Below, in pieces: positions 562-50,799 of a stretch of DNA of 64,000 nt. Position numbers and translations under genes: made by a program. Each line of letters opens with the position of its first letter. Position 1 is the stretch's first letter. This stretch comes from Holophagales bacterium UBA2201 (lineage in GTDB: Bacteria; Acidobacteriota; Thermoanaerobaculia; UBA2201). A model generated the notes under the pieces. That model did no database searches. It was not told the DNA's origin and saw only the letters and a list, made by a program, of their open reading frames with translations. The stretch is taken from the NCBI GenBank assembly GCA_002327305.1, contig DCUZ01000016.1:7873-71872 (forward strand). The letters run 5' to 3'.

Positions 562-2223
562 TCATGCTTGTGCAAGATGCCATAATTCAAGGATAAATGT
601 CCTAGTCAGATTGAAATCGGAGGGCCTGAGTCCTTTTCGAACTACTTCATTGCATTTCTTCTTAAAACTCCCATAATTCTCTTTTTCAATTACTCCAACA
701 CCATCAGCGTCACGAGCTACTGTCACTCCTAACTTCTCCGCTTCGGAGATCATTCGATCAGAATAATGTCGTTCGATGCCTCGAAAGGACCGTCCTAGTT
801 TAGGATTAAAAGCACTATCAGGCCAAACACAGACTTTGCAGGGATCATGCTTTGAGAATAGCTTTTCGAATTGTGCTTTCTTGGATGCAACATCCCAGTC
901 TAATAGTATGATCACTGGAGATGCAATATTGCGTGCACGCAATGCTGATTTATTCGACTTTAAATATGCGTAAAGTGCATCAACTCCCCCCGCATCTTCT
1001 TCTTCATCCATCTGCGCGAGATATTGGATTCTAATGCATCGCTGTGGCTTAATCAGTGCAAGGGCTTCATTCAAATATGCAGCATCGAATTTCCCTTCTA
1101 CTAATATCAGCGGATCAAGAGGGCAAAATAGAAGAGGATGTGTCCATCTTGAGACACCTGCCGAGGCTGAAAGATCAATGATAGCCCGTTTGTCTCGCTC
1201 TGGATTCAAATTTGTACCGCTTGTTCCTTTCTCTAAGAATGCAGCAGAATCTGCATGTTGAATTATCATATCAGAGTGCGTGGTAGCGAATATCTGCAGG
1301 CGACCACCTTGTTCAGAAGCAATTTCAGAAAGGTACGATGCTAGATGAGCTTCTAAAGATGTATGCAAAGACGACTCCGGCTCTTCTGCAAGCCAGACAG
1401 CAGCTTGTCGCCAGCCAAATTGTTGGAAATAGTCACGGTCAATCAGCGCCAATGTTTCAAACATAAGTAGGCTTTGGATACCAGACCCTTGAAATATATC
1501 GTCGACATCTATACCGAGGTCCTTAAGCCTGTATCCTAGCGCGAAAACAATGTTAGCCCAGTTGTCCGGAGTTTTTAATTGAACTCCCTCAATCCCTGGG
1601 CAGAGATCCTTTACATGCTTTGACATTGGCTCCAGTAATGTATTTGACGTTTCTTCAATTGCTCCAAACAATTCAGTCGGTCTTGGTGCTTTCTTTCCAA
1701 GGCGTCTGACAAGTGCGTCGCGAAGGGCGCTGTGCTGCTGTTGGATAACATCTATTGGAAGAACCCTGTTGGGCACATAACGGATTGGGATAAGTGATAA
1801 GAATTGTTCAATACGCTGAGAATTTTCATAGTCTAAAGGCTTAGTGCTATTATTAATATAATATTGGGTATTTATAGAAGCACGCTCCCATACCTTTGTG
1901 ATAGTGGTCCCGCTTGCAATAAGATGCTTTACCTCCTCCAGGCCCTTCCGAAAAGAGAAATTTCCCGGGATATTAAACTTGACGGAAACAGAAATCTGCT
2001 TCTTCCTATGCTTCTTTGCATGGGGGAGGTGAAAATCCCGGTCTATTTCAAGGGGAATGCCCGGCTCACAGTTATCTGTAAAATACGCATAGATCGCACG
2101 CAATACGTTCGACTTGCCTGAATTATTCAGCCCACATAAAACATTGAAGTTCCCGAATTCATTTAACTCCAGATCAGCAATTGATCGGAATCCTTTAATG
2201 CGTGCAGCGCTTATCAATTCCAT
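562..2223 (-). CDS. OLD-family ATP-dependent endonuclease (ABC ATPase + Toprim)
   Basis: N-terminal Walker A GLNNSGKSNVL, Walker B-like AVWLAEEPE and an ATTHS H-loop. The C-terminal Toprim region has LILVEGKFDAAYL and LLDWD motifs. The gene is AT-rich relative to the backbone. Confidence 0.75.
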   Translation of the reverse strand: MELISAARIKGFRSIADLELNEFGNFNVLCGLNNSGKSNVLRAIYAYFTDNCEPGIPLEIDRDFHLPHAKKHRKKQISVSVKFNIPGNFSFRKGLEEVKHLIASGTTITKVWERASINTQYYINNSTKPLDYENSQRIEQFLSLIPIRYVPNRVLPIDVIQQQHSALRDALVRRLGKKAPRPTELFGAIEETSNTLLEPMSKHVKDLCPGIEGVQLKTPDNWANIVFALGYRLKDLGIDVDDIFQGSGIQSLLMFETLALIDRDYFQQFGWRQAAVWLAEEPESSLHTSLEAHLASYLSEIASEQGGRLQIFATTHSDMIIQHADSAAFLEKGTSGTNLNPERDKRAIIDLSASAGVSRWTHPLLFCPLDPLILVEGKFDAAYLNEALALIKPQRCIRIQYLAQMDEEEDAGGVDALYAYLKSNKSALRARNIASPVIILLDWDVASKKAQFEKLFSKHDPCKVCVWPDSAFNPKLGRSFRGIERHYSDRMISEAEKLGVTVARDADGVGVIEKENYGSFKKKCNEVVRKGLRPSDFNLTRTFILELWHLAQA

Positions 2224-2348
2224 TCTTATCCTCTTTTCACATAAAGAAAATACTGCTTCTGATATAAGACAAGCCGATTCTGTGCCCCTAACATTCTATG
2301 TAGCAGCAGACAAGATATTATTTAAGTGACAATTTTAAGACACTACGC

Positions 2349-4508
2349 TTATTCATGGCTTTTCCCCTCAACTATATATATCTCTTCATCATTCAGACCA
2401 TAGAGCTCATAGACCAACTTATCGATCTGCCGGTCGGTTGCGTCTATTTGGCGCTGAAACAGATTCTTTTGCTCCTCCAACTTTGCGGCCGATATTTTCT
2501 TATGCAAGGTGAGCATAGTACCTACCAAATCTACTATCTGCCCATGCCGCACCTTATCATCATTATTTGTAAAATCAATGATTCGAACAGGCACTTTTTC
2601 CATGTACTGGTAGATCAAACGATATCGGTACTGCCCAGCACGAACGCCGAATGGAATGCTGATATTGCTAATTGCAAACCAGAAGAGTTTACTGTTAAGC
2701 AACCCCAGAAGATACGGATCATTTACCCCAATGCAATAAGCGGTATTGGATAGGTAATGCCCCTCCCTATCAAGGCAGAAGCGCGGCCCTTTGGCAATAT
2801 CTGGATAAATGATTTTTGCCTGATCAAAAACCTCCCAATAGGCCACATCATCTTGGATCTCATACCACTCATATCGGCCTGGTTTTCGTCCGCGCTTTGC
2901 GTTTTTATCGCGCTTGGGTGTCAGATCTTCTTTCCATTTTGAAAGATGCTCCATAATTGCAGGATAGTCCTTGATCCGTACACCACGCCGCGTGAAAATG
3001 AGCCATTGATCTGCTTCATGAAATACATATCGCCTGATATCTTCGCCGCCGAGCATCGGATGAATTAACTCCGCACTATTGGCATCCTTTCTAATGAGGT
3101 CAGTCCTTGTTTTGCTGTCGATAATGAAGGCTTCGTTAAGCCCTGTTTTAATTCCATAGCATATTTTATCTTTTGCAAAGTCGCAAAGAGGGATACCCGC
3201 CTTTGTTATCTTCTCGAATACATGGGCTTCATCATCGGATTTTAGCGACCAAGCATCTGGCTCCAATCTGACATGTGGGATAAAGTAATGATTGGCTTCG
3301 ACAAACGACTTTAAGTCTTGAATTTGCAGGGAAGGGATTCGGCTAACTTCCACGCTCTGGGGCTGTTCTGTTTTAACGAAAAGAGGAATGCATACATAAG
3401 TGTCTTTCGCGTTTTCAAACACGGCCAAGCCACCAAAGTCCACTATGCGAAGCACGCCTGCATGCTTTTTGATCTGACGACGTAGTGACTCACCATAGGT
3501 AGCCCGCAAGAAACTGCTTGAAACAATGATGCTGAAACGACCATTAGCGCGGAGGAGATCAAGGCCCCGTTCTATAAAATATGCGTAGAGGTCTGCCACC
3601 CCATGATAAGCTTCGTACTGCTTGGAGAAATAGTCTTTGAATTCTGATAGAGTTTCCTGTCTGACATAAGGCGGATTCCCGATCACCACATCAAACCCGC
3701 CGCCCTTCATGATCGCCGGGAACTCCCGATCCCAATCGAAGGCGTTGATCCGCTTCCGGTCCTCGTCCGAAAACATGTCCAGTTGCCTGCCCTGGTAGAA
3801 GTCCTGCCCGATGAGCGAATTCCCGCACTTTATATTGGCCGTGAGATCGGGGAGGACAAGCCCCCTCATATAAAGCATCATCTGCCCCTTGTCGAATCCC
3901 TTGTCCAATAGTTTAAGGTAGAGCGACATGATGGCCACTTCGGTGGCCTCGCGGTCGATGTCCACACCGAAGAGGTTGTTCTTGAGGATCCTCCCCTTCT
4001 TCTCCACGGTGAGGCGGACGTCGCCCTCGGCGGTCTGGTACCAGTCGCGGGCGTGGGCCTTGTCCTTTTTGTGCTCCGCGTACCACTCTTCATGGTATCG
4101 GATGAGCCGATCGAAGGCGCCCAGGAGGAAGGAGCCGGAACCGCACGCCGGATCGAGGATCTTGAGGGTTTCGATCTCCGCGGGGGTCTTGCCCTTGATC
4201 TTTTCGCCCACGGTGTGCTCGACTATGTAATCCACCACCCACTGCGGGGTGTAATAGACGCCGCCGGCGTGGCGGACCTCGGGCTTTTCCTCCACCTTGG
4301 CGCGGTGGCCCTCGGTCAACCAGATCTTGGAGCCCAGGAACCGCTCGTAGATGCGGCCCAGGATCTCCGGCTCGATGATGTCGAACTGGTAGGGGCTGGC
4401 TGGAGCCACCTCCCGCCCTGCCGAAGGATGAAGTATGAAGGAAAAATTATGAAGGAGGGGCAGAAGGGGGACAGGGGTGGGACGAGAAAAAGCTTCAAGA
4501 TAGGTCAT
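2349..4508 (-). CDS. Type IIG restriction-modification enzyme, C-terminal fragment (gamma-class N6-adenine MTase + target-recognition region); nuclease/helical N-terminal part missing
   Basis: The fragment aligns to residues ~310-994 of the intact paralog at 21694-24678 (YERFLG, AKVEEKPEV, YYTPQWVVDYIVEHTVG, LDPACGSGSFLLGAF, VIGNPPYVRQE). The first ~35 codons (4395-4508) show no homology to the paralog. It overlaps the 3' end of the four-helix-bundle gene by 14 nt. Confidence 0.7.
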   Translation of the reverse strand: MTYLEAFSRPTPVPLLPLLHNFSFILHPSAGREVAPASPYQFDIIEPEILGRIYERFLGSKIWLTEGHRAKVEEKPEVRHAGGVYYTPQWVVDYIVEHTVGEKIKGKTPAEIETLKILDPACGSGSFLLGAFDRLIRYHEEWYAEHKKDKAHARDWYQTAEGDVRLTVEKKGRILKNNLFGVDIDREATEVAIMSLYLKLLDKGFDKGQMMLYMRGLVLPDLTANIKCGNSLIGQDFYQGRQLDMFSDEDRKRINAFDWDREFPAIMKGGGFDVVIGNPPYVRQETLSEFKDYFSKQYEAYHGVADLYAYFIERGLDLLRANGRFSIIVSSSFLRATYGESLRRQIKKHAGVLRIVDFGGLAVFENAKDTYVCIPLFVKTEQPQSVEVSRIPSLQIQDLKSFVEANHYFIPHVRLEPDAWSLKSDDEAHVFEKITKAGIPLCDFAKDKICYGIKTGLNEAFIIDSKTRTDLIRKDANSAELIHPMLGGEDIRRYVFHEADQWLIFTRRGVRIKDYPAIMEHLSKWKEDLTPKRDKNAKRGRKPGRYEWYEIQDDVAYWEVFDQAKIIYPDIAKGPRFCLDREGHYLSNTAYCIGVNDPYLLGLLNSKLFWFAISNISIPFGVRAGQYRYRLIYQYMEKVPVRIIDFTNNDDKVRHGQIVDLVGTMLTLHKKISAAKLEEQKNLFQRQIDATDRQIDKLVYELYGLNDEEIYIVEGKSHE

Positions 4509-4875
4509 TTTGGGCCTTCACCTTCTTGATTATAGTAGCAAAGATGGCCGTAAGCTCATCGCATTCCTTCATTAGAGGCTTAAGTGTGTCTACGGGGTGG
4601 ATTCCGCTATCGCGTAAAAGTTCCAACCAATAGGCCGTTTCTTCAAGTTCTTTAAGGCTATCGCCCACCTTGGCCGAGAATTCGGCCTTGCTCCGGCTCC
4701 GATAGGCTTCGCGATAATTGGCTCCGATGGAAGTCCCTGATCGAAGGACCTGCTTTCCGATCATCCGCGCTTCAGGGCTTTTAGGTAGCCCGCTCGACAG
4801 GCGGATGATCTGGAGAGCGAAGCCCTTCGTCCTATCCCTCAAATCCTTCCCTTCGGCCCTGACTTCATCCCTCAT
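4495..4875 (-). CDS. four helix bundle protein (23S rRNA intervening-sequence protein family, TIGR02436-like)
   Basis: 126 aa with the family pattern DLRDRTKGFALQIIRL...LPKSPEARMIGKQVLRSGTSIGANYREAYRSRSKAEFSAKVGDSLKELEETAYWLELL. Its ATG overlaps the stop of the upstream fragment (ATGA). Confidence 0.8.
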   Translation of the reverse strand: MRDEVRAEGKDLRDRTKGFALQIIRLSSGLPKSPEARMIGKQVLRSGTSIGANYREAYRSRSKAEFSAKVGDSLKELEETAYWLELLRDSGIHPVDTLKPLMKECDELTAIFATIIKKVKAQNDLS

Positions 4876-5225
4876 ACTTCTGCCTTCATCCTTTTAGTGA
4901 GCGTGAAGACGGGCCGCTTGTCCGTGAGGGGCACATGGGGGGCCTTGGCCTCCACGAAGAACCGGGGCTTGCGCCGGACGCGGAAGGCGTAGTCGGGCTT
5001 TTTGATGGTGTCGCGTTCCTTCTGGCTATACTCGCGGTGGACGTCCCATTCGTCGCGGGGGAGGTGGGTTTGCTCGAAGTCCCAGCCGAGGGCCTGGAAG
5101 AGGGGGTCTATGAAGCGGTTTCTTGTTTCCGTTTCTTGGAAGGCTTTGGTTAGGTAGTGGGGTTCGTTTTTGTGGAAGTCTTCCACCTTTTGTTCGACGA
5201 GGGATTTGCCTTGGGAACGTTTCAT
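4872..5225 (-). pseudogene. N-terminal PD-(D/E)XK nuclease-domain fragment of a Type IIG R-M enzyme (truncated after the catalytic EAK motif)
   Basis: The 117-aa product is homologous to residues 1-~110 of the 994-aa paralog (FIDPLFQALGWDF, PDYAFRV..RFFVEAKAP versus FLDPFFKALGWDV, PDYCFRIGGVRKFFVEAKKP). It diverges and stops right after the EAK motif. It is in the same frame class as the C-terminal fragment. Confidence 0.65.
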
Positions 5226-5619
5226 GCCGCCACCCTACCAGCGGGCGACCCACCGGGTCGCCCCTACCAATACCCGCCGGCCACCTGCCTGGAGGGATTG
5301 CATCCCTCGCCTGCTTTCCTGCCGGCAAACCATCTGAACGCCATTACTGCTGATCGATACGGCCACTAATACCCCCTAAACCCTTTGAATGGCCCGAAAC
5401 ACTGGATAGGACTATACTCCCTTGAATGGGGCAGGGTCAAGGGCATGGCCGGGCTCCCGCGGCCGCTCAGTCCGGAAGGAATCGTTCAGATCTTTGTCTC
5501 CCGGGGCGTTGCCCCAAGCAGACGGTAAACCGGGCCTTGGGCCATCGAATAGTCAACGGCGGACAACGACCTGATTCCTTCAATGATATTGCAAAGGCAT
5601 GCGCTTTTACCAAGCGTGG

Positions 5620-6423
5620 CTAAGCGGCATGCGAAAGCCATGACACGATAAGAGATACGAGATGATCAGCGGCTTGCAGGCGGGCAGGCCATATGGAGAT
5701 CGCCCCAAAGATAGCCGCCAGGGCAAGCGCGACAGCGTTGGCACGGAAGACAGGATCTATAAACGTACCCGGGGCGCCGGAACCGGAAGCAAGACTCGCG
5801 ACCGCCCATTCTTCCCAAAATACTGTAATAAGAAGGCTGATACCGAGCGCAATCCAGATATAAAGGACCTTGAGGAGCCAGTAGAGGACCAACTGATTGG
5901 ATCCCGCCGCGCCTTGGCCGAGCCAGAACACGAAAGCACTCGCGACGAGCAGGATCGTCATGATTGCCGCGAGCGCCGCCGTCGGGCATGCCCGAATCCG
6001 GCTGTTGACGGCGACAAGCCGGAGCCGTTTGGCCGGAAGCAGGGAAAGGCCCCATATCACCGGAATGAAAATCAGCCAAAGAACGGGGACGCCTCCGAGG
6101 GCGACCGCCACAACGATTCCAACCACTGTGGAAAGGACATTCGCCAAAAACATGTAGATGACGGCCAGCCATCGCTTGAGGCCGCGCTGCAACACAGCGA
6201 ACAGCAATGCCTTGATGAGGACGATGACGCAAAGCACCTGGAGCGATGGGACAAGCCAGGACGGACCGGCAACCACCTTCATGAGTGGAAATATCGGTTC
6301 GCAGCCCATCAGGGCGCCGGAGGGGCACAGGGCGAGCAAGAAAGCAATGCTGGCCACGAGCAATGATCGTTTCGAGAGGGTCATGCGGCGCCTCCTGTGG
6401 ATGTCTTCATTTTGTGCATTCAT
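5620..6423 (-). CDS. hypothetical polytopic membrane protein
   Basis: 267 aa with multiple hydrophobic helices and no recognisable catalytic motif. The start may be the internal M of MTLSKRS. Confidence 0.45.
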   Translation of the reverse strand: MNAQNEDIHRRRRMTLSKRSLLVASIAFLLALCPSGALMGCEPIFPLMKVVAGPSWLVPSLQVLCVIVLIKALLFAVLQRGLKRWLAVIYMFLANVLSTVVGIVVAVALGGVPVLWLIFIPVIWGLSLLPAKRLRLVAVNSRIRACPTAALAAIMTILLVASAFVFWLGQGAAGSNQLVLYWLLKVLYIWIALGISLLITVFWEEWAVASLASGSGAPGTFIDPVFRANAVALALAAIFGAISIWPARLQAADHLVSLIVSWLSHAA

Positions 6424-6607
6424 GGCTTCTCCTGCAACTGCACTGAATTCCAGGCGGCCGTGATCCAGACGACGCGGCCCTTCCCCGCTGGGTGTGCCGA
6501 AAGCCCTGGAAATGGACAGAAATCGGCAAAGCCTCCAAAATCATATTCCCATGCTTCCGCATCATCCGCATCCTTCCTTCGCTAATTCCCGCCTTTCCCG
6601 CGGACTT

Positions 6608-6907
6608 TTACCCTTTCACCCCGCGGCCCCGCCAATAGCGTGGCCGACGGTGAAGATGGGCTACCGCTACAATAACGAGGCTCTGTTCATCCCGGCCATA
6701 AATGAGGCCATACGGGAAGCGGGCGAGAAAACAGCGTCGCAATTCAGGACCGATTTCGCTTCCGGAAGATGGGTAGACACTGATTCTTCGGACCGCCCGG
6801 TCCAACTCATCAAGGAATTCCATCCCCAATCCCGGCACCTGTACCTCGTACCATGCTACGGCATCGTCCAGTTCGCGTCGGGCGCGAATGGTGAACCTTA
6901 CGGTCAT
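6608..6907 (-). CDS. ParE/RelE-family type II toxin
   Basis: 99 aa with the ParE-like N-terminus MTVRFTIRARRELDDAVAWY, overlapping the upstream antitoxin by 4 nt. Confidence 0.75.
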   Translation of the reverse strand: MTVRFTIRARRELDDAVAWYEVQVPGLGMEFLDELDRAVRRISVYPSSGSEIGPELRRCFLARFPYGLIYGRDEQSLVIVAVAHLHRRPRYWRGRGVKG

Positions 6908-7126
6908 GACCTGCTGTACTTTTCCATGACGGCCCGATAGGACACGGTTTTAAGGCGGCCCGCCTTGTAGGCCTTCCACCGGCGATGCGCTTCCTGTGCC
7001 CAGGCACGGTCAATTTCCGGATCCGGCTGGTCAAGATCGGCCAGGATTGAATCCACCAGTTGAAGTTTTTCCATATCCGACAGGGATCGGATTTGTATGG
7101 CGAGTTTTTCCGCTTTGGCGCTCATA
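6904..7126 (-). CDS. type II antitoxin (putative addiction module component, ParD-like/CHP02574-like)
   Basis: MSAKAEKLAIQIRSLSDMEKLQLVDSILADLDQPDPEIDRAWAQEAHRRWKAYKAGRL. The start is placed at the internal ATG preceded by GGAGGTG; the longer track ORF is an N-terminal over-extension. Confidence 0.7.
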
Positions 7127-7330
7127 ATACGCACCTCCTGTGTTCGATTATAGTGTAGCACAGTGGTTTTCCACTCCCTCGTCACCGGCTCGTCGTTCGT
7201 CTTCCGCCCCGAGTCCGTTGGAAAAGCGAATCGGAGGGATTTGCCGAAAGCGAACGCCGGCTCGAAGAAGTCATCCCAGGAGCGGGACGCGCGGATGAAG
7301 CGGTCAACGGCGGTCGGGGGCATGGGGGGC

Positions 7331-7699
7331 TCATTCGGCCGCGAGGTTCCGGATGTAGTGGTTCAACTCCCTGGCCTTGCCGTCGAAGAACAGGGTGACG
7401 CAGGCCAGCACTTTCAACATCGACTGGACGCCGTCGGCCCTGGCCTCCGCGTCCGGTTGCCAGACGGCGTACCGGCCGGGGGCTTCGCTCCGGACCGCCA
7501 GATACCGCCGCGTCATGCTGTCATGGAAGATGATCGTCGGGGCCACCAGGGAGGGGTCCCGCTCCCGCTTGGCCAGCTCCCTCTTGAACGGGAAGGTCTT
7601 CACGAAGGAGAGGGCCGCGCTTTTTTCTATGGCCCCCATCTTCACCACATCGTCCGGCGACGAGGTGTCGAACAGAATCTTGTAGGTGAACCGGCTCAC
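7331..7699 (-). CDS. hypothetical protein
   Basis: 122-aa ORF in a plausible gap with no recognisable motifs. Confidence 0.35.
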   Translation of the reverse strand: MSRFTYKILFDTSSPDDVVKMGAIEKSAALSFVKTFPFKRELAKRERDPSLVAPTIIFHDSMTRRYLAVRSEAPGRYAVWQPDAEARADGVQSMLKVLACVTLFFDGKARELNHYIRNLAAE

Positions 7700-8004
7700 G
7701 GGCGCCCTCCGCCCCCCGCTCGCCGGCCTTTTCCAGGGCCGTTGCCGGGCGCCACTCGATTCCTCCGTGCCGGCGGGTCGGGGCCGCGCATTCCGCCACT
7801 ATACTCCCGCCTGGGAGAGGGGGTCAAGGGGGGGAGGAGGCCCCGCAAACGCATGCGCCGACCCGCACGCACGGGCGCTTGGGGCGTCCGCGGCAGGAAA
7901 GGACGCGGGGGGAACGGCCCGGCCCGGAAGGATGGACCCGGATCAAGCCGGCCGGGGATGCGAAGGGGCGGCTCCGCTCGGCGGAAGACGGCCCCACCGT
8001 CCCC

Positions 8005-21376: not shown

Positions 21377-21405
21377 CCGCCCCCCCCCGTCCCCATGATC
21401 GCCGC

Positions 21406-21436
21406 GGCCCCGGGGCAACCCGGGGCCGTTCGTTTT
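21406..21436 (+). terminator. putative rho-independent terminator downstream of secF
   Basis: GC stem GGCCCCGGGG-CAA-CCCGGGGCC followed by GTTCGTTTT, 30 nt after the secF stop. It is also convergent with the displaced 3' gene remnant on the other strand. Confidence 0.5.
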
Positions 21437-21455
21437 GGGGATCTCCCGGGGTTGG

Positions 21456-21621
21456 TCAGCGGTTCAGCGCCGGGAACGATGCCAGCGGGGGGGCGCCCCA
21501 GATGCGGACGGACGCGGGGATCCCGTTGACGACGCAGGTCCACGAACCGTCCGTGCCCAACCCCGACATCTCCGCCATCCACACCGCCCCCCAGCCGTCC
21601 CGCGACGGGGCCTCGATGCGG
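21456..21621 (-). pseudogene. displaced native 3' end (alternative C-terminus) of the secreted-protein gene now at 27580-28080
   Basis: Reading the minus strand through repeat copy A gives ...MAEMSGLGTDGSWTCVVNGIPASVRIWGAPPLASFPALNR*. This is homologous to the C-terminus of the 27580-28080 product (...DYTWACTVDGRHSSIRVWGTPPLSSFPALNQAK*). Confidence 0.55.
21549..21621. repeat. 73-bp direct repeat, copy A (att-like boundary)
   Basis: 72/73 nt identical to 27680-27752 (tccgtgccca[a/g]ccccgacatctccgccatccacaccgccccccagccgtcccgcgacggggcctcgatgcgga). Confidence 0.85.
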
Positions 21622-21693
21622 AGTGCCATCCGGTCCCGGAGCCGGTCGCCGGATGTCTGCCGTTTGGGGGAGCTTTCCTAACGTCGCTTCGGA

Positions 21694-24678
21694 GTGTACA
21701 ATAAGCGCATGGGCATTGAAACAATCAAAGGTCTCGTGGACCGGTTTGAAACCCATCGGGATTCCTATACCTCCGGCTCCTACAACGAAACCCAGCTCCG
21801 CCGCGAGTTCCTGGACCCCTTCTTCAAGGCCCTCGGTTGGGATGTCTTCAACGAAAAGGGCTACGACGAGGCCTACAAAGAGGTCATCCACGAGGATTCC
21901 CTCAAGATCGGCGAATCCACCAAGGCCCCCGACTACTGCTTCCGCATCGGCGGCGTGCGCAAGTTTTTCGTGGAGGCCAAGAAGCCCTCCGTCAACGTCA
22001 AAGAGGATGTCTCCCCCGCCTACCAATTGCGCCGCTATGCCTGGAACGCCGACCTCCCCCTTTCCATCCTCACCGATTTCGAGGAGTTCGCCGTCTACGA
22101 TTGCCGTGAAAAGCCGGCTCTGACCGACAAGGCCTCCAGGGCCCGCGTCCTCTACCTCCCCTTCCACGAGTACCCGGAGCGCTGGGAGGAACTGGCCGCG
22201 CTTTTCTCCCCCGAGGCCGTCCTCAAGGGCTCCTTCGACCGCTACGCCCGATCGGCCAAGGCCAAGCGGGGCACCGCCGGGGTGGACGACGCCTTCCTAG
22301 AGGACATCGAGCGGTGGCGGGAACTGCTGGCCAGGGGCTTCGCCCTGCGCAACCCGGCCCTCTCCACCCATACCCTCAACTTCGCCGTTCAGCGCACCAT
22401 TGACCGCATCATCTTCCTGCGCATCGCCGAGGACCGCGGCCTGGAGCCCTACGGCACGCTTCTGGGGCAAATCAACGGCGAAGGCGTCTATCCCCGCCTC
22501 GTCGAGCTCTTCCGCAAGGCCGACCAGAAATACAACTCCGGCCTCTTCCACTTCCAGAATGAGAAGGGCCAGCACGAACGGCCCGACGACCTCACCCCCC
22601 GCCTCCACCTCGACGACAAGCCGCTGAAGGCGATCATCCAAGGGCTCTACTACCCCGAGAGCCCCTACGAGTTCTCCGTCATGCCCGCCGACATCCTGGG
22701 GCAGGTCTATGAGCGGTTCCTGGGAAAAGTCATCCGCCTCACCGCCGGCCATCAGGCCAAGGTGGAGGAGAAGCCGGAGGTGAAAAAGGCCGGCGGCGTA
22801 TTTTATACTCCCACCTTCATCGTGGACTACATCGTCCGGCATACGGTGGGACGGCTCCTGGAGGGCAAGACCCCCAAACAGATTTCAAGCCTGCGCATCC
22901 TGGACCCCGCCTGCGGCTCCGGCTCCTTCCTTCTGGGAGCCTACCAGTGCCTTCTCGACTGGCACCGCGACTGGTACCTTGCCGACGGCGCCGCGATACA
23001 CCCCAAGGAGATTTACCGCGCCCACACCGGGCAGTGGCGCCTCACCACCCCGGAGCGCAAGCGCATCCTCCTCAACTCCATCCACGGCGTGGACCTGGAC
23101 CCGCAGGCTGTGGAGGTCACCAAGCTCTCCCTCCTGCTGAAAGTCCTGGAGGGGGAGACGGAGCAGACTCTCCAGCACCAGATGGACTTCATGCGCGCCC
23201 GCGCCCTGCCCGACTTGGGGCGTAACATCCAGTGGGGCAACTCCCTCATCGGGGGCGACTACACCCACGGCCGGCAGTTGGACTTCGTGCCGGAGGAGGA
23301 GCGGTACCGCGTCAACCCCTTTGATTGGGCCCGCCAGTTCTCCGCCGTCATGGAGGCGGGGGGCTTCGACGCCGTCATCGGCAATCCCCCTTATGTGCGG
23401 CAGGAGACCCTGGGCGACGACTTCAAAGCGTATGCCGGCACGCACTTCAAGACCTTCGCCGGCACCGCCGACCTCTATGTCTATTTCATCGAGCGGGGCA
23501 TCTCGCTCCTGAAGGATGGCGGGATCTTCTCCTACATCGTCGCCAACAAGTGGCTGAGGGCCGCCTATGGGAAGCCTCTCCGGCAGTGGCTCAAGGACAA
23601 GGCCGTCGAGGAGATCGTGGACTTCGGCGACCTCCCCGTCTTCCAGGGCGCCACCACCTACCCCTGCATCCTGCGCGTCGCCAAGAGCAAGGCCAAGAAG
23701 AGTTTCAGCGCCGCCAAAGTACCGGACTTGGAGTTCACCGATCTGGAGGAGAAGGTCAAGGACCTGCGATACACCGTAGAGAAGACGACCCTCTCTCCAG
23801 ACGGCTGGTCGTTGGCCGACGCCAAGGTTTCGGCCCTCCTGGGGAAGATCAAGGCCCAAGGAATCCCTCTGAAAGAGTATGTCAAGGGAAAGATCTATCG
23901 GGGCGTTCTGACCGGCTTCAACGAGGCCTTTGTTATTGACGAGGCGACAAAGAAACGGCTCATCCAAGAAGACCCCAAAAGCGCCGAACTCATCAAGCCC
24001 TTCCTCCAGGGGCGCGACATCAAGCGGTATCAGCCGCCCACCCCGACGCGCTATCTCATCTTTACGCGCCGGGGAGTGGACATCAAACGCTATCCCGCCA
24101 TCGAGCGGCATCTGCTCCAATATAAAGAACTTCTAATGCCGAAGCCGAAAAACTGGAAGGGGAAAGAGTGGAAGGGGCGCAAGCCGGGGGCGTATCAGTG
24201 GTACGAGATTCAAGACAGCACCGATTATTACTCGGAATTTGAGAAGCCTAAGATTCTCTGGCCTGAAATAGCAGGCGATGCACGCTTCACCTTTGACCCC
24301 GCAGGCTGCTATGCCAACAACAAAGTGTTTCTAATTCCCTCTGAGGATAAATACCTTCTTGGCTTGTTGAACTCTTCGTTGCTAAAGACCTTCATACACT
24401 CCGTATGCACTGATCTCCAGGGCAGTAGTTTCAACTTCAGTGCTGTCTTTGTGCAAAAGACGCCTATCGTTGTGCCTGATCTTAAGGACAAAACACGGGT
24501 GAAGGCCAAAGAAGAGATCCTCGCCCTGGTGGACCAGCTACTTAAGATGAATGCCGACCTGGCTACCTGCACAAGCAATCAGCAGCGGGTGCTATGCCAG
24601 CGATATATTCTTGCCCACGAGAAGCAGATAAATAATGCTGTCTGTTCAATATACCGAATCGATCATGATGATTGCTAG
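21694..24678 (+). CDS. Type IIG restriction-modification enzyme (PD-(D/E)XK nuclease + gamma-class N6-adenine MTase + TRD), intact
   Basis: 994 aa. N-terminal PDYCFRIGGVRKFFVEAKKP (PD..EAK), SAM motif LDPACGSGSFLLGAY and catalytic VIGNPPYVRQE. The size and order match MmeI-like Type IIG/IIL enzymes. An alternative start is at 21709. Confidence 0.8.
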   Translation: MYNKRMGIETIKGLVDRFETHRDSYTSGSYNETQLRREFLDPFFKALGWDVFNEKGYDEAYKEVIHEDSLKIGESTKAPDYCFRIGGVRKFFVEAKKPSVNVKEDVSPAYQLRRYAWNADLPLSILTDFEEFAVYDCREKPALTDKASRARVLYLPFHEYPERWEELAALFSPEAVLKGSFDRYARSAKAKRGTAGVDDAFLEDIERWRELLARGFALRNPALSTHTLNFAVQRTIDRIIFLRIAEDRGLEPYGTLLGQINGEGVYPRLVELFRKADQKYNSGLFHFQNEKGQHERPDDLTPRLHLDDKPLKAIIQGLYYPESPYEFSVMPADILGQVYERFLGKVIRLTAGHQAKVEEKPEVKKAGGVFYTPTFIVDYIVRHTVGRLLEGKTPKQISSLRILDPACGSGSFLLGAYQCLLDWHRDWYLADGAAIHPKEIYRAHTGQWRLTTPERKRILLNSIHGVDLDPQAVEVTKLSLLLKVLEGETEQTLQHQMDFMRARALPDLGRNIQWGNSLIGGDYTHGRQLDFVPEEERYRVNPFDWARQFSAVMEAGGFDAVIGNPPYVRQETLGDDFKAYAGTHFKTFAGTADLYVYFIERGISLLKDGGIFSYIVANKWLRAAYGKPLRQWLKDKAVEEIVDFGDLPVFQGATTYPCILRVAKSKAKKSFSAAKVPDLEFTDLEEKVKDLRYTVEKTTLSPDGWSLADAKVSALLGKIKAQGIPLKEYVKGKIYRGVLTGFNEAFVIDEATKKRLIQEDPKSAELIKPFLQGRDIKRYQPPTPTRYLIFTRRGVDIKRYPAIERHLLQYKELLMPKPKNWKGKEWKGRKPGAYQWYEIQDSTDYYSEFEKPKILWPEIAGDARFTFDPAGCYANNKVFLIPSEDKYLLGLLNSSLLKTFIHSVCTDLQGSSFNFSAVFVQKTPIVVPDLKDKTRVKAKEEILALVDQLLKMNADLATCTSNQQRVLCQRYILAHEKQINNAVCSIYRIDHDDC

Positions 24679-26002
24679 CGCCGCAAACCCAGGCGTCTTC
24701 AACATACGCAGCGAATTATCAGATAAAAGCATTAGAATTCTATCAAACCAAATTGATCAAGTATTTTCGAAGAAGGGATTGGCCTTTCCGAGAAGTGCAG
24801 AAGAATTGAAAAAGTATGCTTATAATCCTTACATTAAAATAGATGGCAATATTTTTCATTTAAGTGCAATCGGATCGCAAGCGCTTGAGCGCATATTGGC
24901 CATATTTCAAGGCATTAAACCGCTGAGCGATTTACTTAGCCCAAATGATTATTACCGGATCATCCTTGGCGAGATCGAGAATTGGATCAATCGCAAATTG
25001 GTACCAAGTCCTGATGTATTCATTGATTCGGTAGAAAAGCATATATTGACCTATATAGATTGGTATCAGTTTCTATGCAAAATAGATGGGTTAATCTTGC
25101 AAGGTGTTGATCAATTGCCAATAGGAGGAAAAATAATAAGTAAGTACACACCAGAAATTCTCGATAACATAATGCAAAAATCGGATGATTTTATAAAGAT
25201 CATCAATACTGAACATAATAATTCTATTGTTATTTCAGGGAAAGAAAGAGGATCGATTGATTCAGCTTCGAGAAAATTCTGCTTCAATGCAGAATTGTGC
25301 CTATCGCTGTTGCGATTGTATCACTGTATCGCAAGAGGAGGTGATATACTGCGCCCCAAAATTAGGTTAGTTAGCGAGTGTCATGGCGCTTATGGATCAG
25401 CTATTGTATTTGGATGGGATGAGAAAACAAAGAGCGAAACTTGGATAAGACATTTTAAGGAAGATTTAAGCCTTGTAATAGACAATGAAATGTTAACTTA
25501 CTTCAGAAAGCAATGTTATTGGGATCAGTTAGCGGGCCTTATCTTAAAAGAAGACAGAAGCGAAGTAGAGGAAGCGATAGTTAAATCACTTTATTGGTTT
25601 GGCGAAGCGCATAAGGAACGCACAATTGTTACAAAATGGATTCTATTGTGGACTTGCATTGAATGCTATTTTTCTATTGATGATGAGCGGATAACAGAAA
25701 ATAATGCAATGGGCGTTGCAACTTTCCTTAAATTTGGTGGATATTCATTTGACGAATATAATGATTATCGCAAATTAAAGAGCAAGATCAGGAAATATTA
25801 TGAACTTAGAAGTCTTGCTCTGCACAGAGCATCTTATCAACATATTGAGTCTGAAGCTCTCGAGACATTTGCTCAAATGGTTGCCTGGGTGATCATTATA
25901 ATGGTCTCATTGTCATTGAGAGGTTATAACAATTTAGTCCAGATAAAGAAAGAAGCAGAAAGATTAGATAGCCTGCACTATTCGGATCAGAAAAATGGAT
26001 AA
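24635..26002 (+). CDS. hypothetical protein (AT-rich; C-terminal Rx4H HEPN-like motif), candidate defence-associated partner of the Type IIG gene
   Basis: 455 aa. Its start overlaps the R-M gene stop (alternative ATGs at 24665/24668). The C-terminal helical region contains YELRSLALHRASYQH (Rx4H). No other recognisable motif. Confidence 0.5.
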   Translation: MLSVQYTESIMMIASAANPGVFNIRSELSDKSIRILSNQIDQVFSKKGLAFPRSAEELKKYAYNPYIKIDGNIFHLSAIGSQALERILAIFQGIKPLSDLLSPNDYYRIILGEIENWINRKLVPSPDVFIDSVEKHILTYIDWYQFLCKIDGLILQGVDQLPIGGKIISKYTPEILDNIMQKSDDFIKIINTEHNNSIVISGKERGSIDSASRKFCFNAELCLSLLRLYHCIARGGDILRPKIRLVSECHGAYGSAIVFGWDEKTKSETWIRHFKEDLSLVIDNEMLTYFRKQCYWDQLAGLILKEDRSEVEEAIVKSLYWFGEAHKERTIVTKWILLWTCIECYFSIDDERITENNAMGVATFLKFGGYSFDEYNDYRKLKSKIRKYYELRSLALHRASYQHIESEALETFAQMVAWVIIIMVSLSLRGYNNLVQIKKEAERLDSLHYSDQKNG

Positions 26003-26354
26003 AGCGCTTTACATTTCCCTGCTCGTTGCCGTTGCAACTCCCGTTGTAGCATTCGCCCTGCGGCTGGCCTGGAAGGCAATCCGGCTATGGCATGCCCGCC
26101 GTCTCTCAGTGGAGGAGAAGCATCTGCTCCACTATGCGGCCAAATCCCAAGGCATGATCCACCACATGGAGGCCGATCAAATCCCCGGCGGATGGGTCCG
26201 CGCCGGCGGGATGGATTTCGACACGGAGCCCCGCCGGGCGGGTCTTTACCTTGCGGCTCTCGAACGCCTGATCGCCCTGGGCTATGTGGAGTACAAGTCG
26301 GGAAACCTATTCACTTTGACCCATTCCGGCTGGAAAAAGGGGGAAAGGACATGA
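25995..26354 (+). CDS. small membrane-anchored hypothetical protein
   Basis: 119 aa with one N-terminal TM helix (LYISLLVAVATPVVAFAL). Its ATG overlaps the upstream stop by 8 nt. Confidence 0.4.
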   Translation: MDKALYISLLVAVATPVVAFALRLAWKAIRLWHARRLSVEEKHLLHYAAKSQGMIHHMEADQIPGGWVRAGGMDFDTEPRRAGLYLAALERLIALGYVEYKSGNLFTLTHSGWKKGERT

Positions 26355-26397
26355 TGGCCGCCCGTATCGCATTCTGGAAATCGCGGAGGATGTTCTG

Positions 26398-27408
26398 ATG
26401 GTCGTTCATGCATCCTATGTCTGCCCCCGTTGTCATGGAGGCATGGAGATCGGGCCAAGCGGACTGATCTGTCCGGCCTGCACAATCACTTATCCGGTGG
26501 CGGATGGTATCGCCGACTTCTCTGAAGGCCATTACTACGATCAGTTCGACCCCTCCTCCTCGCTCACCGTCGAACATCAGGCGGGGCTAAATCACGAGGT
26601 CGAGGGGTCCCGATGGCGCATCCAGGCCTATTATCTCCCCAAGATCGAAACGACTTTACGCAAATTTGCTCTGGAGCGCTCCAGGATACAGATCCTGGAT
26701 TGCGGCTGCGGCAACGGCTGGTCGGTGGACCTGCTAAACGACACGGGGCTCTTGACCTGGGGGGTTGACCTGTCCCAATTGCGCCGGTGGCAGTGGAGGG
26801 AGCGCAAGCACAAAGGCAACCTTGCGGTGGCCGACGCCCGCCGTCTTCCCTTCGAGGATGGCCGTTTTCATTTCATCCTCTGTTCCGGCGTCATTGAGCA
26901 CATCGGGGTCCAGGAGTACAAGCTGGGGGCCTATAGCGTGAAACCCCTGGAAAACCGCGACGCCATGCGAACAGCATTCCTTTCCGAACTCCTGCGGGTC
27001 CTCGCTCCCGGCGGCACGCTCTGGCTGGATTGTCCCAACGGGGCCTTCCCCATTGATTTCTGGCATGGCGATCGGGTGGGCCAGGCCCGCCGCCATGCGC
27101 TGAATGAGGGCTTCCTGGCCAAGACCGGCGAGATTCGGAGCTATCTATCGGCGATCAAGACGCCGGCTTCCTTGAAGCCGCGCAGCCCTCATCGCCTATT
27201 CCGCTTCCAGCAGGTGGGGCGGCATTGGTACGGTCGTGCGATCCGGCCTTTGATGGGTATATATTTCAACCTCATGCGTGTGTTTCCTTTCTCCATCTTG
27301 GCCGGCACGGGCCTCAATCCGTACTTGGTCCTGGAGATCAGCAAGGAGGCAGATCATGTGCATTCGAAGGAGCACTCTACGGCAATATTGCTTATCAAAC
27401 AACAGTAA
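26398..27408 (+). CDS. class I SAM-dependent methyltransferase with N-terminal Trm112-like zinc ribbon
   Basis: CPRCHGGM...CPAC zinc ribbon, then ILDCGCGNGWSVDLL (motif I) and ADARRLPFEDGRFHFILCSGVIEHI (Methyltransf_11-like). No DNA-MTase DPPY/NPPY motif. Confidence 0.7.
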   Translation: MVVHASYVCPRCHGGMEIGPSGLICPACTITYPVADGIADFSEGHYYDQFDPSSSLTVEHQAGLNHEVEGSRWRIQAYYLPKIETTLRKFALERSRIQILDCGCGNGWSVDLLNDTGLLTWGVDLSQLRRWQWRERKHKGNLAVADARRLPFEDGRFHFILCSGVIEHIGVQEYKLGAYSVKPLENRDAMRTAFLSELLRVLAPGGTLWLDCPNGAFPIDFWHGDRVGQARRHALNEGFLAKTGEIRSYLSAIKTPASLKPRSPHRLFRFQQVGRHWYGRAIRPLMGIYFNLMRVFPFSILAGTGLNPYLVLEISKEADHVHSKEHSTAILLIKQQ

Positions 27409-27579
27409 CACCGGCAAAACTCCGCTATGAACTTGTGCCTTCCAACGGCAACCATTATTATTTGATCACCGCTTATAGTGCCAATCAGGAAAGCAGCCCT
27501 GGAAATGGCACCAGCGGGCCCCGTCCTGTCTCGCAATGCACCTGCCCGCCATAAATACGGACGAGAAAAGCCCAGCTAT

Positions 27580-28080
27580 TTATTTTGCCTGATTCAATGC
27601 CGGAAATGAAGAAAGCGGCGGCGTGCCCCATACCCGGATTGAGCTATGCCTGCCATCAACGGTGCAAGCCCATGTATAATCCGTGCCCAGCCCCGACATC
27701 TCCGCCATCCACACCGCCCCCCAGCCGTCCCGCGACGGGGCCTCGATGCGGAACTCCAGGGGGTCCTTCAACGCGTGGCCGGGGACGCGGAGGAACCGGA
27801 CCTCGTCGGCCGGCAGGTCGCCGAGCTTCCCGCCGTTCAGGATGATCGCGCCGCCGGTCAGGGACCACGCCCGCAGGCGCATCTCCTGCCGCCCGGCACG
27901 GGCGAAGGCACGCACGAAAACGACGGTTTCCGGCTCCGCCGCCGGCAATTTCCCGTCCCGCCAGATCACTTGGCCTCCCGGTTCCGCGGCGCGGAGCTTC
28001 TCCGAGTGGAAGCGGTGGACGGATTGCCACAAAATACAAATGGCGAAAAGGGACAGGCCGGCAATCAATATCCGTTTCAT
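27580..28080 (-). CDS. secreted hypothetical protein (host gene carrying island-supplied 3' end)
   Basis: 166 aa with signal/TM MKRILIAGLSLFAICILW. Its last ~60 codons include repeat copy B and a lower-GC tail. Confidence 0.5.
   Translation of the reverse strand: MKRILIAGLSLFAICILWQSVHRFHSEKLRAAEPGGQVIWRDGKLPAAEPETVVFVRAFARAGRQEMRLRAWSLTGGAIILNGGKLGDLPADEVRFLRVPGHALKDPLEFRIEAPSRDGWGAVWMAEMSGLGTDYTWACTVDGRHSSIRVWGTPPLSSFPALNQAK
27680..27752. repeat. 73-bp direct repeat, copy B (att-like boundary, within coding sequence)
   Basis: See copy A. Here it encodes LEFRIEAPSRDGWGAVWMAEMSGLGT of the 27580-28080 product. Confidence 0.85.
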
Positions 28081-28085
28081 GGATA

Positions 28086-28470
28086 GTTTCGAGTTTCGAG
28101 TTTCGAGTTTCGAGTTGAGAAGCGGGAAACGCGGTTTCGAGTCTCGAGTTTAGAGTTTCGAGTTGTCAAACGGGAAACGCAGTTTCGAGTTTCGAGTTTC
28201 GAGTTTCGAGTTGAGAAGCGGGAAACGCGGTTTCGAAGTTCGAGTTCATAGTTTCGTGTTGAGAAGCAGGATGTAGAGAGAGTTGTGCTTTTAACTTTCA
28301 ACTCGCAACTCGCAACTTTGCTCTGGTTTTGTCTTTAATTCGGAACTCGAAACTCGAAACTCGCAACTTTGCTCTGGTTTTGTCTTTAATTCGAAACTCG
28401 CAACTCGCAACTCGCAACTTTGCTCTGGTTTTGTCTTTAATTCGAAACTCGCAACTCGCAACTCGCAACT
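28086..28470. repeat. composite tandem-repeat array: 4 units of ~48 bp built from (TTTCGAG)n + TTGAGAAGCGGGAAACGCGG, then 3-4 units of ~51 bp built from (AACTCGC/AACTCGA)n + AACTTTGCTCTGGTTTTGTCTTTAATTCG
   Basis: Read directly. It occupies the whole intergenic/promoter region between the ABC-2 permease stop and the start of the 27580-28080 gene. Confidence 0.85.
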
Positions 28471-48233: not shown

Positions 48234-48911
48234 TTATAAATATTGCGGGAAGAATAAGCCTTCAGTGTCACCACTATGTGAACTAATCTCTTCTTCTTTT
48301 AGAAGACGGACATCACCGTATCTGCCAACAAATACCGTCTCTTTGAATATGGTTGGCATATATGCTTTAGGAATTGGCTTTATTACATATCGCGTTATTT
48401 CATAACCGTAACCAACGGGAACTACCCTGGCCTCTTGGAAGCGAAGCCACTTCCATTTGCTGGTGGGGAGGCACACACCAATGCAGCCGCTATGCCCTGT
48501 TCGAGGATAGATCTCTAATTTCTGCTCTTCAAACAAATGTACTGTATTAAAAGAAGAAAAGAATCTGAAATAAACTAAAGCGTCAGATGCACTCCATAAA
48601 AATATGCAGCCATGAAGGTCATTGGGACCTTTCACTTCATTTTCCAGCCCGTTCTTTTTAAGTACTACTTTTTCAGTGTACTCGGGGGGAATGCTGACGC
48701 CGGGAACGAACTCCACGTGACAGTCTTCTTTGAGCATCGTCAGTGTTATGCATGTGCTATCAGAAGTATAATCCAGACATCGATAGCTGGAGCCATTAAT
48801 GGAATGCCACCCTGCTCTGGAGGCGCAGCCGATTGTTGTAACGGCGACAAGCAGAAGTAATGATTGACTCAGCACGAGTTTATAGCTCTCTATGAGGTTC
48901 TTTGGCATCAT
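48234..48911 (-). CDS. putative lipoprotein, paralog 1 (possible orphan Rhs immunity protein)
   Basis: Signal peptide + lipobox-like TIGC. ~40% identical over ~150 aa to the 49068-49763 product. In a low-GC region. Confidence 0.45.
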   Translation of the reverse strand: MMPKNLIESYKLVLSQSLLLLVAVTTIGCASRAGWHSINGSSYRCLDYTSDSTCITLTMLKEDCHVEFVPGVSIPPEYTEKVVLKKNGLENEVKGPNDLHGCIFLWSASDALVYFRFFSSFNTVHLFEEQKLEIYPRTGHSGCIGVCLPTSKWKWLRFQEARVVPVGYGYEITRYVIKPIPKAYMPTIFKETVFVGRYGDVRLLKEEEISSHSGDTEGLFFPQYL

Positions 48912-49067
48912 GATTATTCCCCTGCCTTTCTACAATGGGATTCTTTCTTCTCTTGCTGAACTTTAACGGTTGCGTTGATGTATTTTATACATTTTAGACT
49001 ACCTATTCATATTTGCTATTTTGGGTTGCACCGCACCGGCACTCTTGATCATCGTGCCTGCCGGTCC

Positions 49068-49763
49068 CTAGATGAATCCAGCAAAGCCCACCCTTTCCGT
49101 ATATTTCGGGTCATCAGTAATCTTTTCTTCGCTTATTAAATCTACTCCACCATCCTTGCGTACGAGCACTATTTCTTTATATATCGTAGGCAAATATGCT
49201 TTTGGGAACGGTTTTATAATGAACCTTGTTATCTCAAAGCCATCATTCTTTGGAGTCACGACTGGATCGTGCAAATGAAGATTGTTCCAGCTCCTATTCG
49301 TCGTGCACACTAAGATGCATCCTCGATGGCCTTTAGGTGCAAATATTTCCTTCTTCTCGTCTTCAAAAAGGTGCGCGGTGTTTTCACTTGAAAAGAAGCG
49401 CAAATACTCTATTGCTTCCTCTGGCGTTTCAATATTTGCGCATCCTTTGAGATCGTTTGGGCCATTAACTCTTCTCATTTCATCTCCACGAATCAAAACA
49501 ACCCTTTCGCTTATCTGAGGGGGGATTGTATCTCCCTCAATAAATTGCAGCGAACACTCAGCATAAATCATTGGGAGATTAATGCACCTGCAATAAGGAG
49601 GGTATTTTCCCTTAAGATACCTGTCGCCGAGAAAACAGTTCAGTTTTTCATGATTAGCGCACGCCAATTCAAGCGATGCGAAGGACAGGAATATCAGAGC
49701 AAGAAAATACCTACGTGCGCGAGGGCAAATCATATTATTTACTTGCATCCGCGAAGTAATCAT
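49068..49763 (-). CDS. putative lipoprotein, paralog 2 (possible orphan Rhs immunity protein)
   Basis: Signal peptide + LELAC. Shared blocks RFFSS.NT.HLFE..K.EI..GH.GCI.VC and EITR.IIKP.PKAY.PTI.KE.V.V. Confidence 0.45.
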   Translation of the reverse strand: MITSRMQVNNMICPRARRYFLALIFLSFASLELACANHEKLNCFLGDRYLKGKYPPYCRCINLPMIYAECSLQFIEGDTIPPQISERVVLIRGDEMRRVNGPNDLKGCANIETPEEAIEYLRFFSSENTAHLFEDEKKEIFAPKGHRGCILVCTTNRSWNNLHLHDPVVTPKNDGFEITRFIIKPFPKAYLPTIYKEIVLVRKDGGVDLISEEKITDDPKYTERVGFAGFI

Positions 49764-49816
49764 ATATTATTCTCCTTCTATTTGTCAGGGCATTTTCCAC
49801 AAAAATCCTCTTTTGA

Positions 49817-50182
49817 TTATTTTTGACTCTCAAGATTCTTGTCCAAGAAATAATTGCAACTTCCCGAGCCAAATCTGGACCTAAGTCTGGCCTTCTCCAG
49901 ACAGGGAACCGAAACGCCATAGGCATAGCATTCAGTGCAGGGTGTGTCGCTTCCCTGCAACCCTGGGTTGCTATTGGGAGATCTGCCTTTGCACGCATTG
50001 GGCCTCTTCTGCGTGAACCATTCAATGTGCGCCACCTCATGTTTTTCAAAGCAATCCGGCGCACAATCCGGGCGCTCAAGCCATCTCCATTTGAATCCCC
50101 CGCAACCGTCGCACACTGTTATGGCGAAATCTGTTAAGACAGCGTGAGAATTGTTCTTTTCAAACACAGAATATTCAAGCAT
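49817..50182 (-). CDS. Cys-rich small hypothetical protein (possible orphan toxin module remnant)
   Basis: 121 aa with 11 Cys (VCDGCGG, CAPDC, CTECY), in the low-GC tract between lipoprotein genes. Confidence 0.3.
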   Translation of the reverse strand: MLEYSVFEKNNSHAVLTDFAITVCDGCGGFKWRWLERPDCAPDCFEKHEVAHIEWFTQKRPNACKGRSPNSNPGLQGSDTPCTECYAYGVSVPCLEKARLRSRFGSGSCNYFLDKNLESQK

Positions 50183-50256
50183 GCCTTCCAGGTCAATAAA
50201 ACCCGACGGATTGTTATGAGCATAATATTATACTGCGGCAAAGGTGTGAAATACTT

Positions 50257-50787: not shown

Positions 50788-50799
50788 GGTTTCTTCCTC

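Follow-up and report, generated by a model that had tools for sequence, protein, structure and literature searches.

The DNA described here is a stretch of 64,000 nt from Holophagales bacterium UBA2201 (contig DCUZ01000016.1 of assembly GCA_002327305.1, positions 7,873 to 71,872), which is referred to as the window and to which all coordinates below belong. In it, the 3' end of a gene for a 166-aa protein is bordered by a small defence island, that is, an insert of 6,057 nt with four tightly packed open reading frames (ORFs), all on the same strand, which lies between two copies of a 73-nt direct repeat and includes a Type IIG restriction-modification (R-M) gene. The resident 166-aa gene (27580-28080, minus strand), whose product combines an N-terminal transmembrane helix with a beta-sandwich domain, is intact, and a second, native-looking version of its 3' end is found on the far side of the insert, next to the housekeeping gene secF. 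This arrangement raises the question of how the island came to be joined to the gene.

The two repeat copies, A (21550-21622) and B (27680-27752), are identical at 72 of 73 positions and are spaced 6,130 nt apart; the lone mismatch, A at 21559 against G at 27689, is a synonymous change in a Leu codon. Homology between the copies extends past the repeat on both sides in weaker form, so that 190 nt can be aligned at 74% identity. Copy B follows the reading frame of the resident gene, of which it forms codons 110-134 (FRIEAPSRDGWGAVWMAEMSGLGTD). Copy A lies inside a stranded fragment of the same gene, and reading it out on the minus strand gives 67 codons with the end GTDGSWTCVVNGIPASVRIWGAPPLASFPALNR / RIEAPSRDGWGAVWMAEMSGLGTDGSWTCVVNGIPASVRIWGAPPLASFPALNR (stop 21456-21458), which pair residue for residue with the C-terminus attached after copy B. 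A first-pass annotation of this DNA had already described a 73-bp repeat at 72/73 identity, with copy B in frame in the 166-aa ORF and two alternative C-termini that align residue by residue, one more GC-rich than the other. All of this holds on closer inspection, except that copy A had been placed one base too low. The same annotation had considered that the 73-mer might be a common dispersed repeat; within the window this is ruled out, as only two matches exist at ≤3 mismatches and none is expected from shuffled sequence.

In gene orientation, the resident gene can be divided into three segments, H5 (codons 1-109), the core (codons 110-134) and X3 (codons 135-166). The GC content at third codon positions (GC3) is 1.00 in the last 36 codons of H5 and 0.96 in the core, and drops to 0.48 in X3, and this break in composition is sharp and falls exactly at the repeat edge between core and X3. 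X3 (YTWACTVDGRHSSIRVWGTPPLSSFPALNQAK*, 27580-27679, minus strand), the attached 3' end of the gene, is read as island-borne, and its composition is like that of the adjoining island-side spacer (27409-27579, 53% GC), which holds a weak terminator-like hairpin (27558-27574, minus strand) 5 nt past the present stop codon of the 166-aa gene. The stranded fragment, in contrast, is GC-rich throughout and consists of Y5, the core and Z3, with GC3 values of 0.83, 1.00 and 0.90, respectively. Y5 (21623-21659, minus strand; ..GDRLRDRMA/L) comprises about 12 codons upstream of the repeat, has homology to the family and is read as an island-borne arm, and Z3 (GSWTCVVNGIPASVRIWGAPPLASFPALNR*, 21456-21549, minus strand) is the displaced native-looking 3' end of 30 codons plus stop. 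The intrinsic terminator of secF (21404-21439, plus strand), identified by a terminator scan as a GC-rich hairpin followed by a T-run, also closes the stranded fragment when read on the minus strand. Because the Z3 stop is 16 nt from this terminator, the layout is that of normal convergent genes, and the hairpin is kept after secF in three relatives (L012, L013 and L014).

Comparison of the two copies gives an identity of 18/37 nt in the Y5 stretch, 72/73 in the core and 54/94 in the 3' end. The differences between Z3 and X3 are distributed over the three codon positions as 11, 6 and 20, with third positions affected most, and X3 retains 15/15 family-conserved positions. Z3 deviates at one of these 15 only (S157A), which fits recent stranding. 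The differences between Y5 and the corresponding resident codons are spread evenly over codon positions (7, 6 and 5), with no third-position bias, and Y5 deviates at 4/6 family-conserved positions, although few positions are compared and the first three of them may fall beyond the true homology. Such deviations, together with the lack of codon-position bias, fit an island arm that has long been non-coding and not a recently stranded coding sequence. A hidden Markov model of the family matches the stranded fragment over positions 99-164 (E 3e-37), and the posterior probability stays high through Y5. In nucleotide identity to the 3' ends of relatives, Z3 reaches 56-69/94 and X3 51-56/94, making X3 the most divergent 3' end of the family, and the protein reconstructed from H5, core and Z3 has 164 aa and ends in ALNR, as in relative P0002. 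Judged on these comparisons, X3 reads as a gene end that is functional yet foreign, and Z3 as the native, family-typical one. Since both Y5 and X3 are homologous to the target flanks, the incoming DNA brought its own copy of the last ~67 codons, and because homology continues past the repeat on both sides, a plain target duplication does not apply. In public records the stranded fragment is listed as a 57-aa hypothetical protein read from an internal ATG (21459-21632, minus strand; MALRIEAPS...ALNR), which occurs on at least 4 contigs, with one strain variant.

The core stands out within the family as well. It is the most conserved nucleotide block across six lineages, pairs of which share 61-67/73 positions, and in 14/20 inter-lineage allele pairs it contains the longest exact match. 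Given that lineages share only this much, the course of identity from 18/37 to 72/73 to 54/94 means that the core has been exchanged or homogenised between the two copies. The same jump rules out the view that the copies are two contiguous, independently evolved alleles.

The cargo of the insert agrees with what the first-pass annotation had listed, namely a Type IIG R-M enzyme, a 455-aa protein (445 aa from the start preferred here), a 119-aa protein and a methyltransferase dependent on S-adenosylmethionine (SAM). The R-M enzyme (21709-24678, plus strand) has 989 aa from its ATG, with the ORF open from a GTG at 21694, and combines an N-terminal nuclease, an Eco57I-type gamma-N6A methylase and a TaqI_C-type specificity domain (PADLOC REase_MTase_IIG, 2.7e-207; Pfam HSDR_N, Eco57I and TaqI_C). 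Its closest homologue among 5.8 billion proteins is 65% identical; the family is huge and the neighbouring genes are unrelated. The 445-aa protein (24665-26002, plus strand; 37% GC; ORF open from 24635) belongs to a family without annotation, with 263 representative clusters and members typically of ~430-440 aa, in which W311, W329, E333, F336, Y379, R382 and H387 are invariant and the C-terminus carries an R-x4-H motif. Searches of Pfam, NCBIfam, PHROG, PADLOC and PDB returned no match to it, even with a 40-member profile, and a single-sequence AlphaFold2 (AF2) model was unusable (predicted local distance difference test, pLDDT, 36). The spacing of its R-x4-H motif might be called HEPN-like, a likeness of motif that no profile or structure match supports. 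The 119-aa protein (25995-26354, plus strand) has an N-terminal hydrophobic segment and no family match. The last gene (26398-27408, plus strand) encodes a class-I SAM-dependent methyltransferase of 336 aa with an N-terminal Trm112-like zinc ribbon; it matches Pfam Methyltransf_11/25/23 and partially the DVU_1556 family, and is not recognisable as a DNA methyltransferase.

Non-coding DNA at the island ends amounts to only 86 and 171 nt. The GC content along the island is a mosaic of 63%, 51%, 37%, 60%, 59% and 53%, as against 64-70% outside. At 23800-26002 the value drops from 63% to 51% in the terminal ~880 nt of the R-M gene, which encode its specificity/C-terminal part, reaches 37% in the 445-aa gene that overlaps it and then returns to 60%. 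The composition suggests a nested replacement of this stretch, the target-recognition end of the enzyme included, by DNA of low GC content.

Searches of the four island ORFs against Pfam, PADLOC, NCBIfam and PHROGs gave no match to an integrase, transposase or resolvase domain (0/4), which bears out the earlier statement that the segment encodes no recombinase, and a Pfam search of the 29 further ORFs of the window found none either. The window contains no tRNA genes. In the reconstructed attP, arm-type repeats do not exceed chance (1 observed, 1.36 expected). Furthermore, in five other lineages of the gene, neither a recombinase beside the gene nor occupancy of the site by any element was found.

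The 166-aa protein belongs to a narrow family of 11 clusters among 5.8 billion proteins, of which the sole named relative is from an uncultured Holophagales metagenome-assembled genome; AF2 with the family alignment reaches pLDDT 70, with weak matches to jelly-roll or carbohydrate-binding-like folds. The genes around the locus are housekeeping genes, GC-rich with GC3 of ~0.9. On the left are tgt, yajC, secD and secF (secF by Pfam, the others by ORFs and the Pfam-annotated calls of the identical contig L008), and on the right an ABC-2 permease, an ABC ATPase, MTAP, an oxidoreductase, lpxA, fabZ and lpxD (the permease by Pfam, the others as on the left). In every lineage with context, the 166-aa gene is the last of a conserved lpxD-fabZ-lpxA-oxidoreductase-MTAP-ABC-ABC2 block, and the gene that follows it varies, being of the Na/sulfate-symporter family (L001), a CLC channel (L004) or an amino-acid permease (L020 and L021). 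Relatives with 69-77% protein identity have one copy of the repeat sequence, in an intact gene and without the island; their downstream flank is not secF, and no second fragment of the gene occurs within 10 kb in any of them. The strain variant L009, 99.6% identical, has the same structure as the window.

On the other side of the locus, the SecF proteins of the window, L012 and L014 are about equally distant from one another (83-85% identity), and in these closest SecF relatives secF is followed by a symporter gene or an MmeI-family gene and not by the 166-aa gene directly. The symporter gene directly follows secF in L014 and abuts the 166-aa gene in L001. In addition, the last 39 nt of L012 and L013 (L012 5640-5678) correspond to the beginning of the MmeI-family gene in L001 (L001 12139-14932), and the order in the L012/L013 relative is, by this overlap, most likely secF, MmeI, symporter and the convergent 166-aa gene. 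The MmeI-family gene, itself of Type IIG, begins ~140 nt past secF in the relative whose SecF is 83% identical. Its presence there indicates that different Type IIG genes have entered the interval between secF and the 166-aa gene on independent occasions. Upstream of MmeI in L001, the place of secF is taken by a group II intron reverse transcriptase.

We slightly favour, with a rough probability of 0.4, an origin by one reciprocal (Campbell-type) crossover, made by host homologous recombination, between the chromosome and a foreign circle that bore a diverged copy of the last ~67 codons of the gene. A non-autonomous defence island of ~6.06 kb would have been carried on circular foreign DNA together with Y5, core and X3, and a single reciprocal exchange between this circle and the 166-aa gene would have taken place inside the 73-nt block. 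The product would be a gene with the native 5' part, the core and the island-borne last 32 codons followed by their own terminator-like hairpin, so that the gene stays intact, and the native end (core and Z3) would be stranded on the far side beside the secF terminator, preceded by the island arm Y5. If the crossover was made by the host recombination machinery, heteroduplex would be confined to the core, the only block similar enough to pair, and its repair across the core would explain the sharp-edged 72/73 identity; alternatively, the element may have acquired the core of the host lineage in an earlier cycle. As the most conserved block, the core is where diverged alleles pair best, and it is also what RecA-dependent recombination would select. 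Host recombination is further favoured by the lack of a recombinase in cis or nearby, the homology on both sides, the lack of arm-type repeats and the lack of site reuse across five lineages. The predicted product is identical to that of Campbell-type integration as known from standard single-crossover genetics, in which a non-replicating circle integrates via a cloned internal or 3' gene fragment, giving direct repeats around the insert, hybrid copies and an intact gene if the fragment includes the 3' end. However, that circle is a laboratory construct, and a natural integration module made from a captured fragment is a proposal that we derive here from sequence.

Several observations weigh against a host-made Campbell-type crossover. 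An empty site was not found in public data, where every contig with the identical gene also carries the island, and the exact H5-core-Z3 protein is absent from a collection of 15 billion proteins. Neither the H5-core-Z3 sequence nor an X3-type end occurs in any of the 11 homologue clusters of the 166-aa protein (0/11), and scans for the gene in genome contigs and in metagenome contigs returned one locus each. A donor or a further instance of the element was not found elsewhere: the 90%-identity clusters of the four island proteins consist of partial sequences or near-identical variants, with the longest contigs being ones already known, a blastn search of the island against plasmids gave no match, and no relatives of the 455-aa protein were found in viral contigs. 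Within the homology segment of the element, a GC-poor X3 next to the GC-rich core and Y5 would not be expected if the fragment had been copied directly from a relative; this combination calls for earlier cycles of integration and excision or for a long-lived dedicated element, as an integrase model predicts. Moreover, integrative elements often choose highly conserved targets, and the coincidence of the repeat with the most conserved block therefore does not exclude site-specific recombination, and the inspection for recombinases covered 64 kb of the genome. Finally, the window lacks the symporter gene that follows secF in both near relatives, which implies at least one further rearrangement in the window. 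The symporter may have been lost before the insertion, or the history may be more complex, and the locus before insertion is uncertain to that extent.

Site-specific integration by a tyrosine or serine recombinase that was lost from the island or acts in trans is, in our estimate, only somewhat less probable than the host-made crossover. The 73-mers would then be attL and attR, and the island would be a decayed element like a cis-mobilizable element (CIME). The layout is the textbook one, with direct repeats, an element-borne diverged 3' end and sharp edges of the identity block, and X3 is element-like in being strongly diverged yet coding-constrained, as after long travel with an element. As in an integrative element, the repeats resemble attL and attR and the target gene is restored by element-borne sequence; the recombinase gene that such an element should contain is lacking. 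The GC mosaic of the island also speaks for this explanation, as it implies that internal replacements or deletions have occurred. On the other hand, there is no remnant of a recombinase gene in an island so tightly packed, and the 29 other ORFs of the window, the lack of arm-type repeats and the unoccupied site in other lineages speak against an integrase as well. The far-side homology in Y5 is likewise something that an integrase does not need. CIMEs are elements that have kept attL and attR and lost their integration and transfer genes, and they are regarded as decayed integrative and conjugative or integrative and mobilizable elements (ICEs or IMEs; PMC5704250). The present island resembles them in that it has no integrase and no other integration or transfer genes, lies between direct repeats at the 3' terminus of a protein-coding gene and leaves this gene intact; the att function of its repeats is putative. 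In Streptococcus thermophilus, for example, CIMEs occupy the 3' end of fda. Unlike CIMEs, the island comes with no cognate ICE or IME or matching integrase found here, and its repeat is long (73 nt), lies on the most conserved coding block and has homology on both sides. Phage 21, e14 and NC-SV integrate in icd of Escherichia coli (PMC12803456). The 166-aa gene resembles icd with these prophages in that the last codons of the target are element-borne and synonymously diverged, with the original end displaced to the other junction. The icd prophages bring a diverged replacement 3' end, and they encode an integrase next to the att site, whereas the island does not. Overall, a recombinase in the window, arm-type repeats, site reuse and an empty site were all sought without success. 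Of the first-pass proposal, site-specific integration with a substitute 3' end, the reciprocal crossover with an element-borne end is retained and the site specificity is not.

The island could also be an R-M insertion with long target duplication, possibly promoted by the R-M system itself, in which a target stretch of tens to hundreds of bp is duplicated and mobility genes play no part, an explanation that we judge improbable. In the work of Nobusato et al. from 2000, R-M gene complexes are reportedly inserted with a long target duplication. For such insertions, Furuta, Abe and Kobayashi (2010; PMC2853133) used the operational criteria of restriction and modification genes within the insert, a length of <20 kb, direct repeats of >30 bp and no mobility genes, and the present insert has R and M inside, 6,057 nt, repeats of 73 nt and no mobility genes. 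It thus shares with them a small R-M insert, long direct repeats over the 3' end of a gene and the lack of integrase and transposase, and the different Type IIG gene of the MmeI family in the same interval of a relative also speaks for this origin. All of the earliest examples belonged to Type IIS, whose enzymes cut outside their recognition sequence (PMC2853133). The enzyme of the island is of Type IIG. As a class, Type IIG enzymes likewise cut at a distance. However, the ends of an insert of this kind should be unrelated to the target flanks, whereas X3 and Y5 are diverged homologues of them and supply a substitute 3' end, which points to recombination between homologous segments and not to target duplication; in addition, a single-copy empty target next to secF was not found in the comparison genomes. 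Recombination of another form, an allelic replacement in which linear DNA from a related donor was anchored upstream and joined illegitimately within the native gene, with later gene conversion of the core, would leave a contiguous native remnant of Y5, core and Z3. The stranded fragment does read like an ordinary GC-rich family member, its GDRL is nearer to the family consensus than the GHAL of the resident gene, and the locus is clearly rearranged, with the symporter missing. Nevertheless, two separate events would be required, the GC3 break between core and X3 inside a supposedly contiguous donor gene would be left unexplained, and the deviations of Y5 at conserved positions without third-position bias are unlike those of a recently functional coding sequence; we therefore give this replacement only about one chance in ten or, put in words, a poor one. 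Even less probable, to the point of being very hard to credit, is an old internal duplication or a silent C-terminal cassette serving variation, with the island merely situated between the copies. Two intact alternative C-termini with a common, conserved and recombination-prone block would suit such a cassette. However, the copies are direct repeats, between which recombination deletes instead of switching; X3 is compositionally foreign, and an old duplication would not hold 72/73 identity beside flanks of 49-57%. The relatives are single-copy, with no second fragment within 10 kb, and this together with the composition largely rules out an ancient duplication or silent cassette.

All in all, the locus belongs to known kinds, namely R-M islands within long direct repeats and integrase-less islands flanked by att-like sites, and no new pattern is established by it; its one unusual trait is the lack of an accompanying recombinase. 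Defence genes, those of R-M systems among them, change genomes far more often than recognisable mobility genes would account for, and how insertions with "long target duplication" come about has yet to be explained; the present locus offers a clear case from an uncultured lineage of acidobacteria related to Holophagales. Its sequence shows that the incoming DNA brought a functional gene end of its own and recombined within the most conserved block of the gene. If homologous recombination alone brought about the insertion, short captured fragments of conserved genes could be portable landing pads for defence islands. One may go further and suppose that the island is a recombinase-free mobile defence cassette whose only integration module is a captured fragment (~200 bp) of a conserved host gene, with which it moves in and out of the chromosomes of related bacteria via host homologous recombination in the most conserved block of that gene, mending the target with a long-diverged 3' end of its own. 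We regard this extension as doubtful. If it were true, the mosaic of the homology segment, with a host-like core and 5' arm and an element-like 3' end, would record repeated cycles of integration and excision, and R-M insertions of the "long target duplication" type would gain a concrete mechanism.

Other features of the window may also be mentioned. A second region of lower GC3 (562-7700, minus strand) contains a paralogous Type IIG R-M gene, 46% identical to that of the island, which is split into a 117-aa N-terminal nuclease piece and a 719-aa methylase/specificity part. Between these pieces, where ~200 residues are missing, sits a gene of the 23S_rRNA_IVP (four-helix-bundle) family, so that three ORFs lie in a row (2349-4508, 4495-4875 and 4872-5225), and the neighbours of the split gene encode an AAA_15/AbiEii-like ATPase (562-2223) and an addiction-module antitoxin (6904-7323). 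Farther along, at 48234-55701 on the minus strand, four small ORFs (48234-50787) without a family match come after a gene for an Rhs-repeat toxin of 1,633 aa (50800-55701); these ORFs are possibly immunity genes or orphan toxin-tip cassettes. Finally, it should be noted that 395 nt separate the 166-aa gene from the ABC-2 permease gene in the window, compared with 126-225 nt in relatives, and that this spacer contains two tandem heptamer arrays, one of AGTTTCG with a 48-nt period (28085-28271) and one of the complementary-type AACTCGC with a 51-nt period (28299-28470). These arrays are mutual inverted repeats, with up to 38 nt at 87% complementarity.

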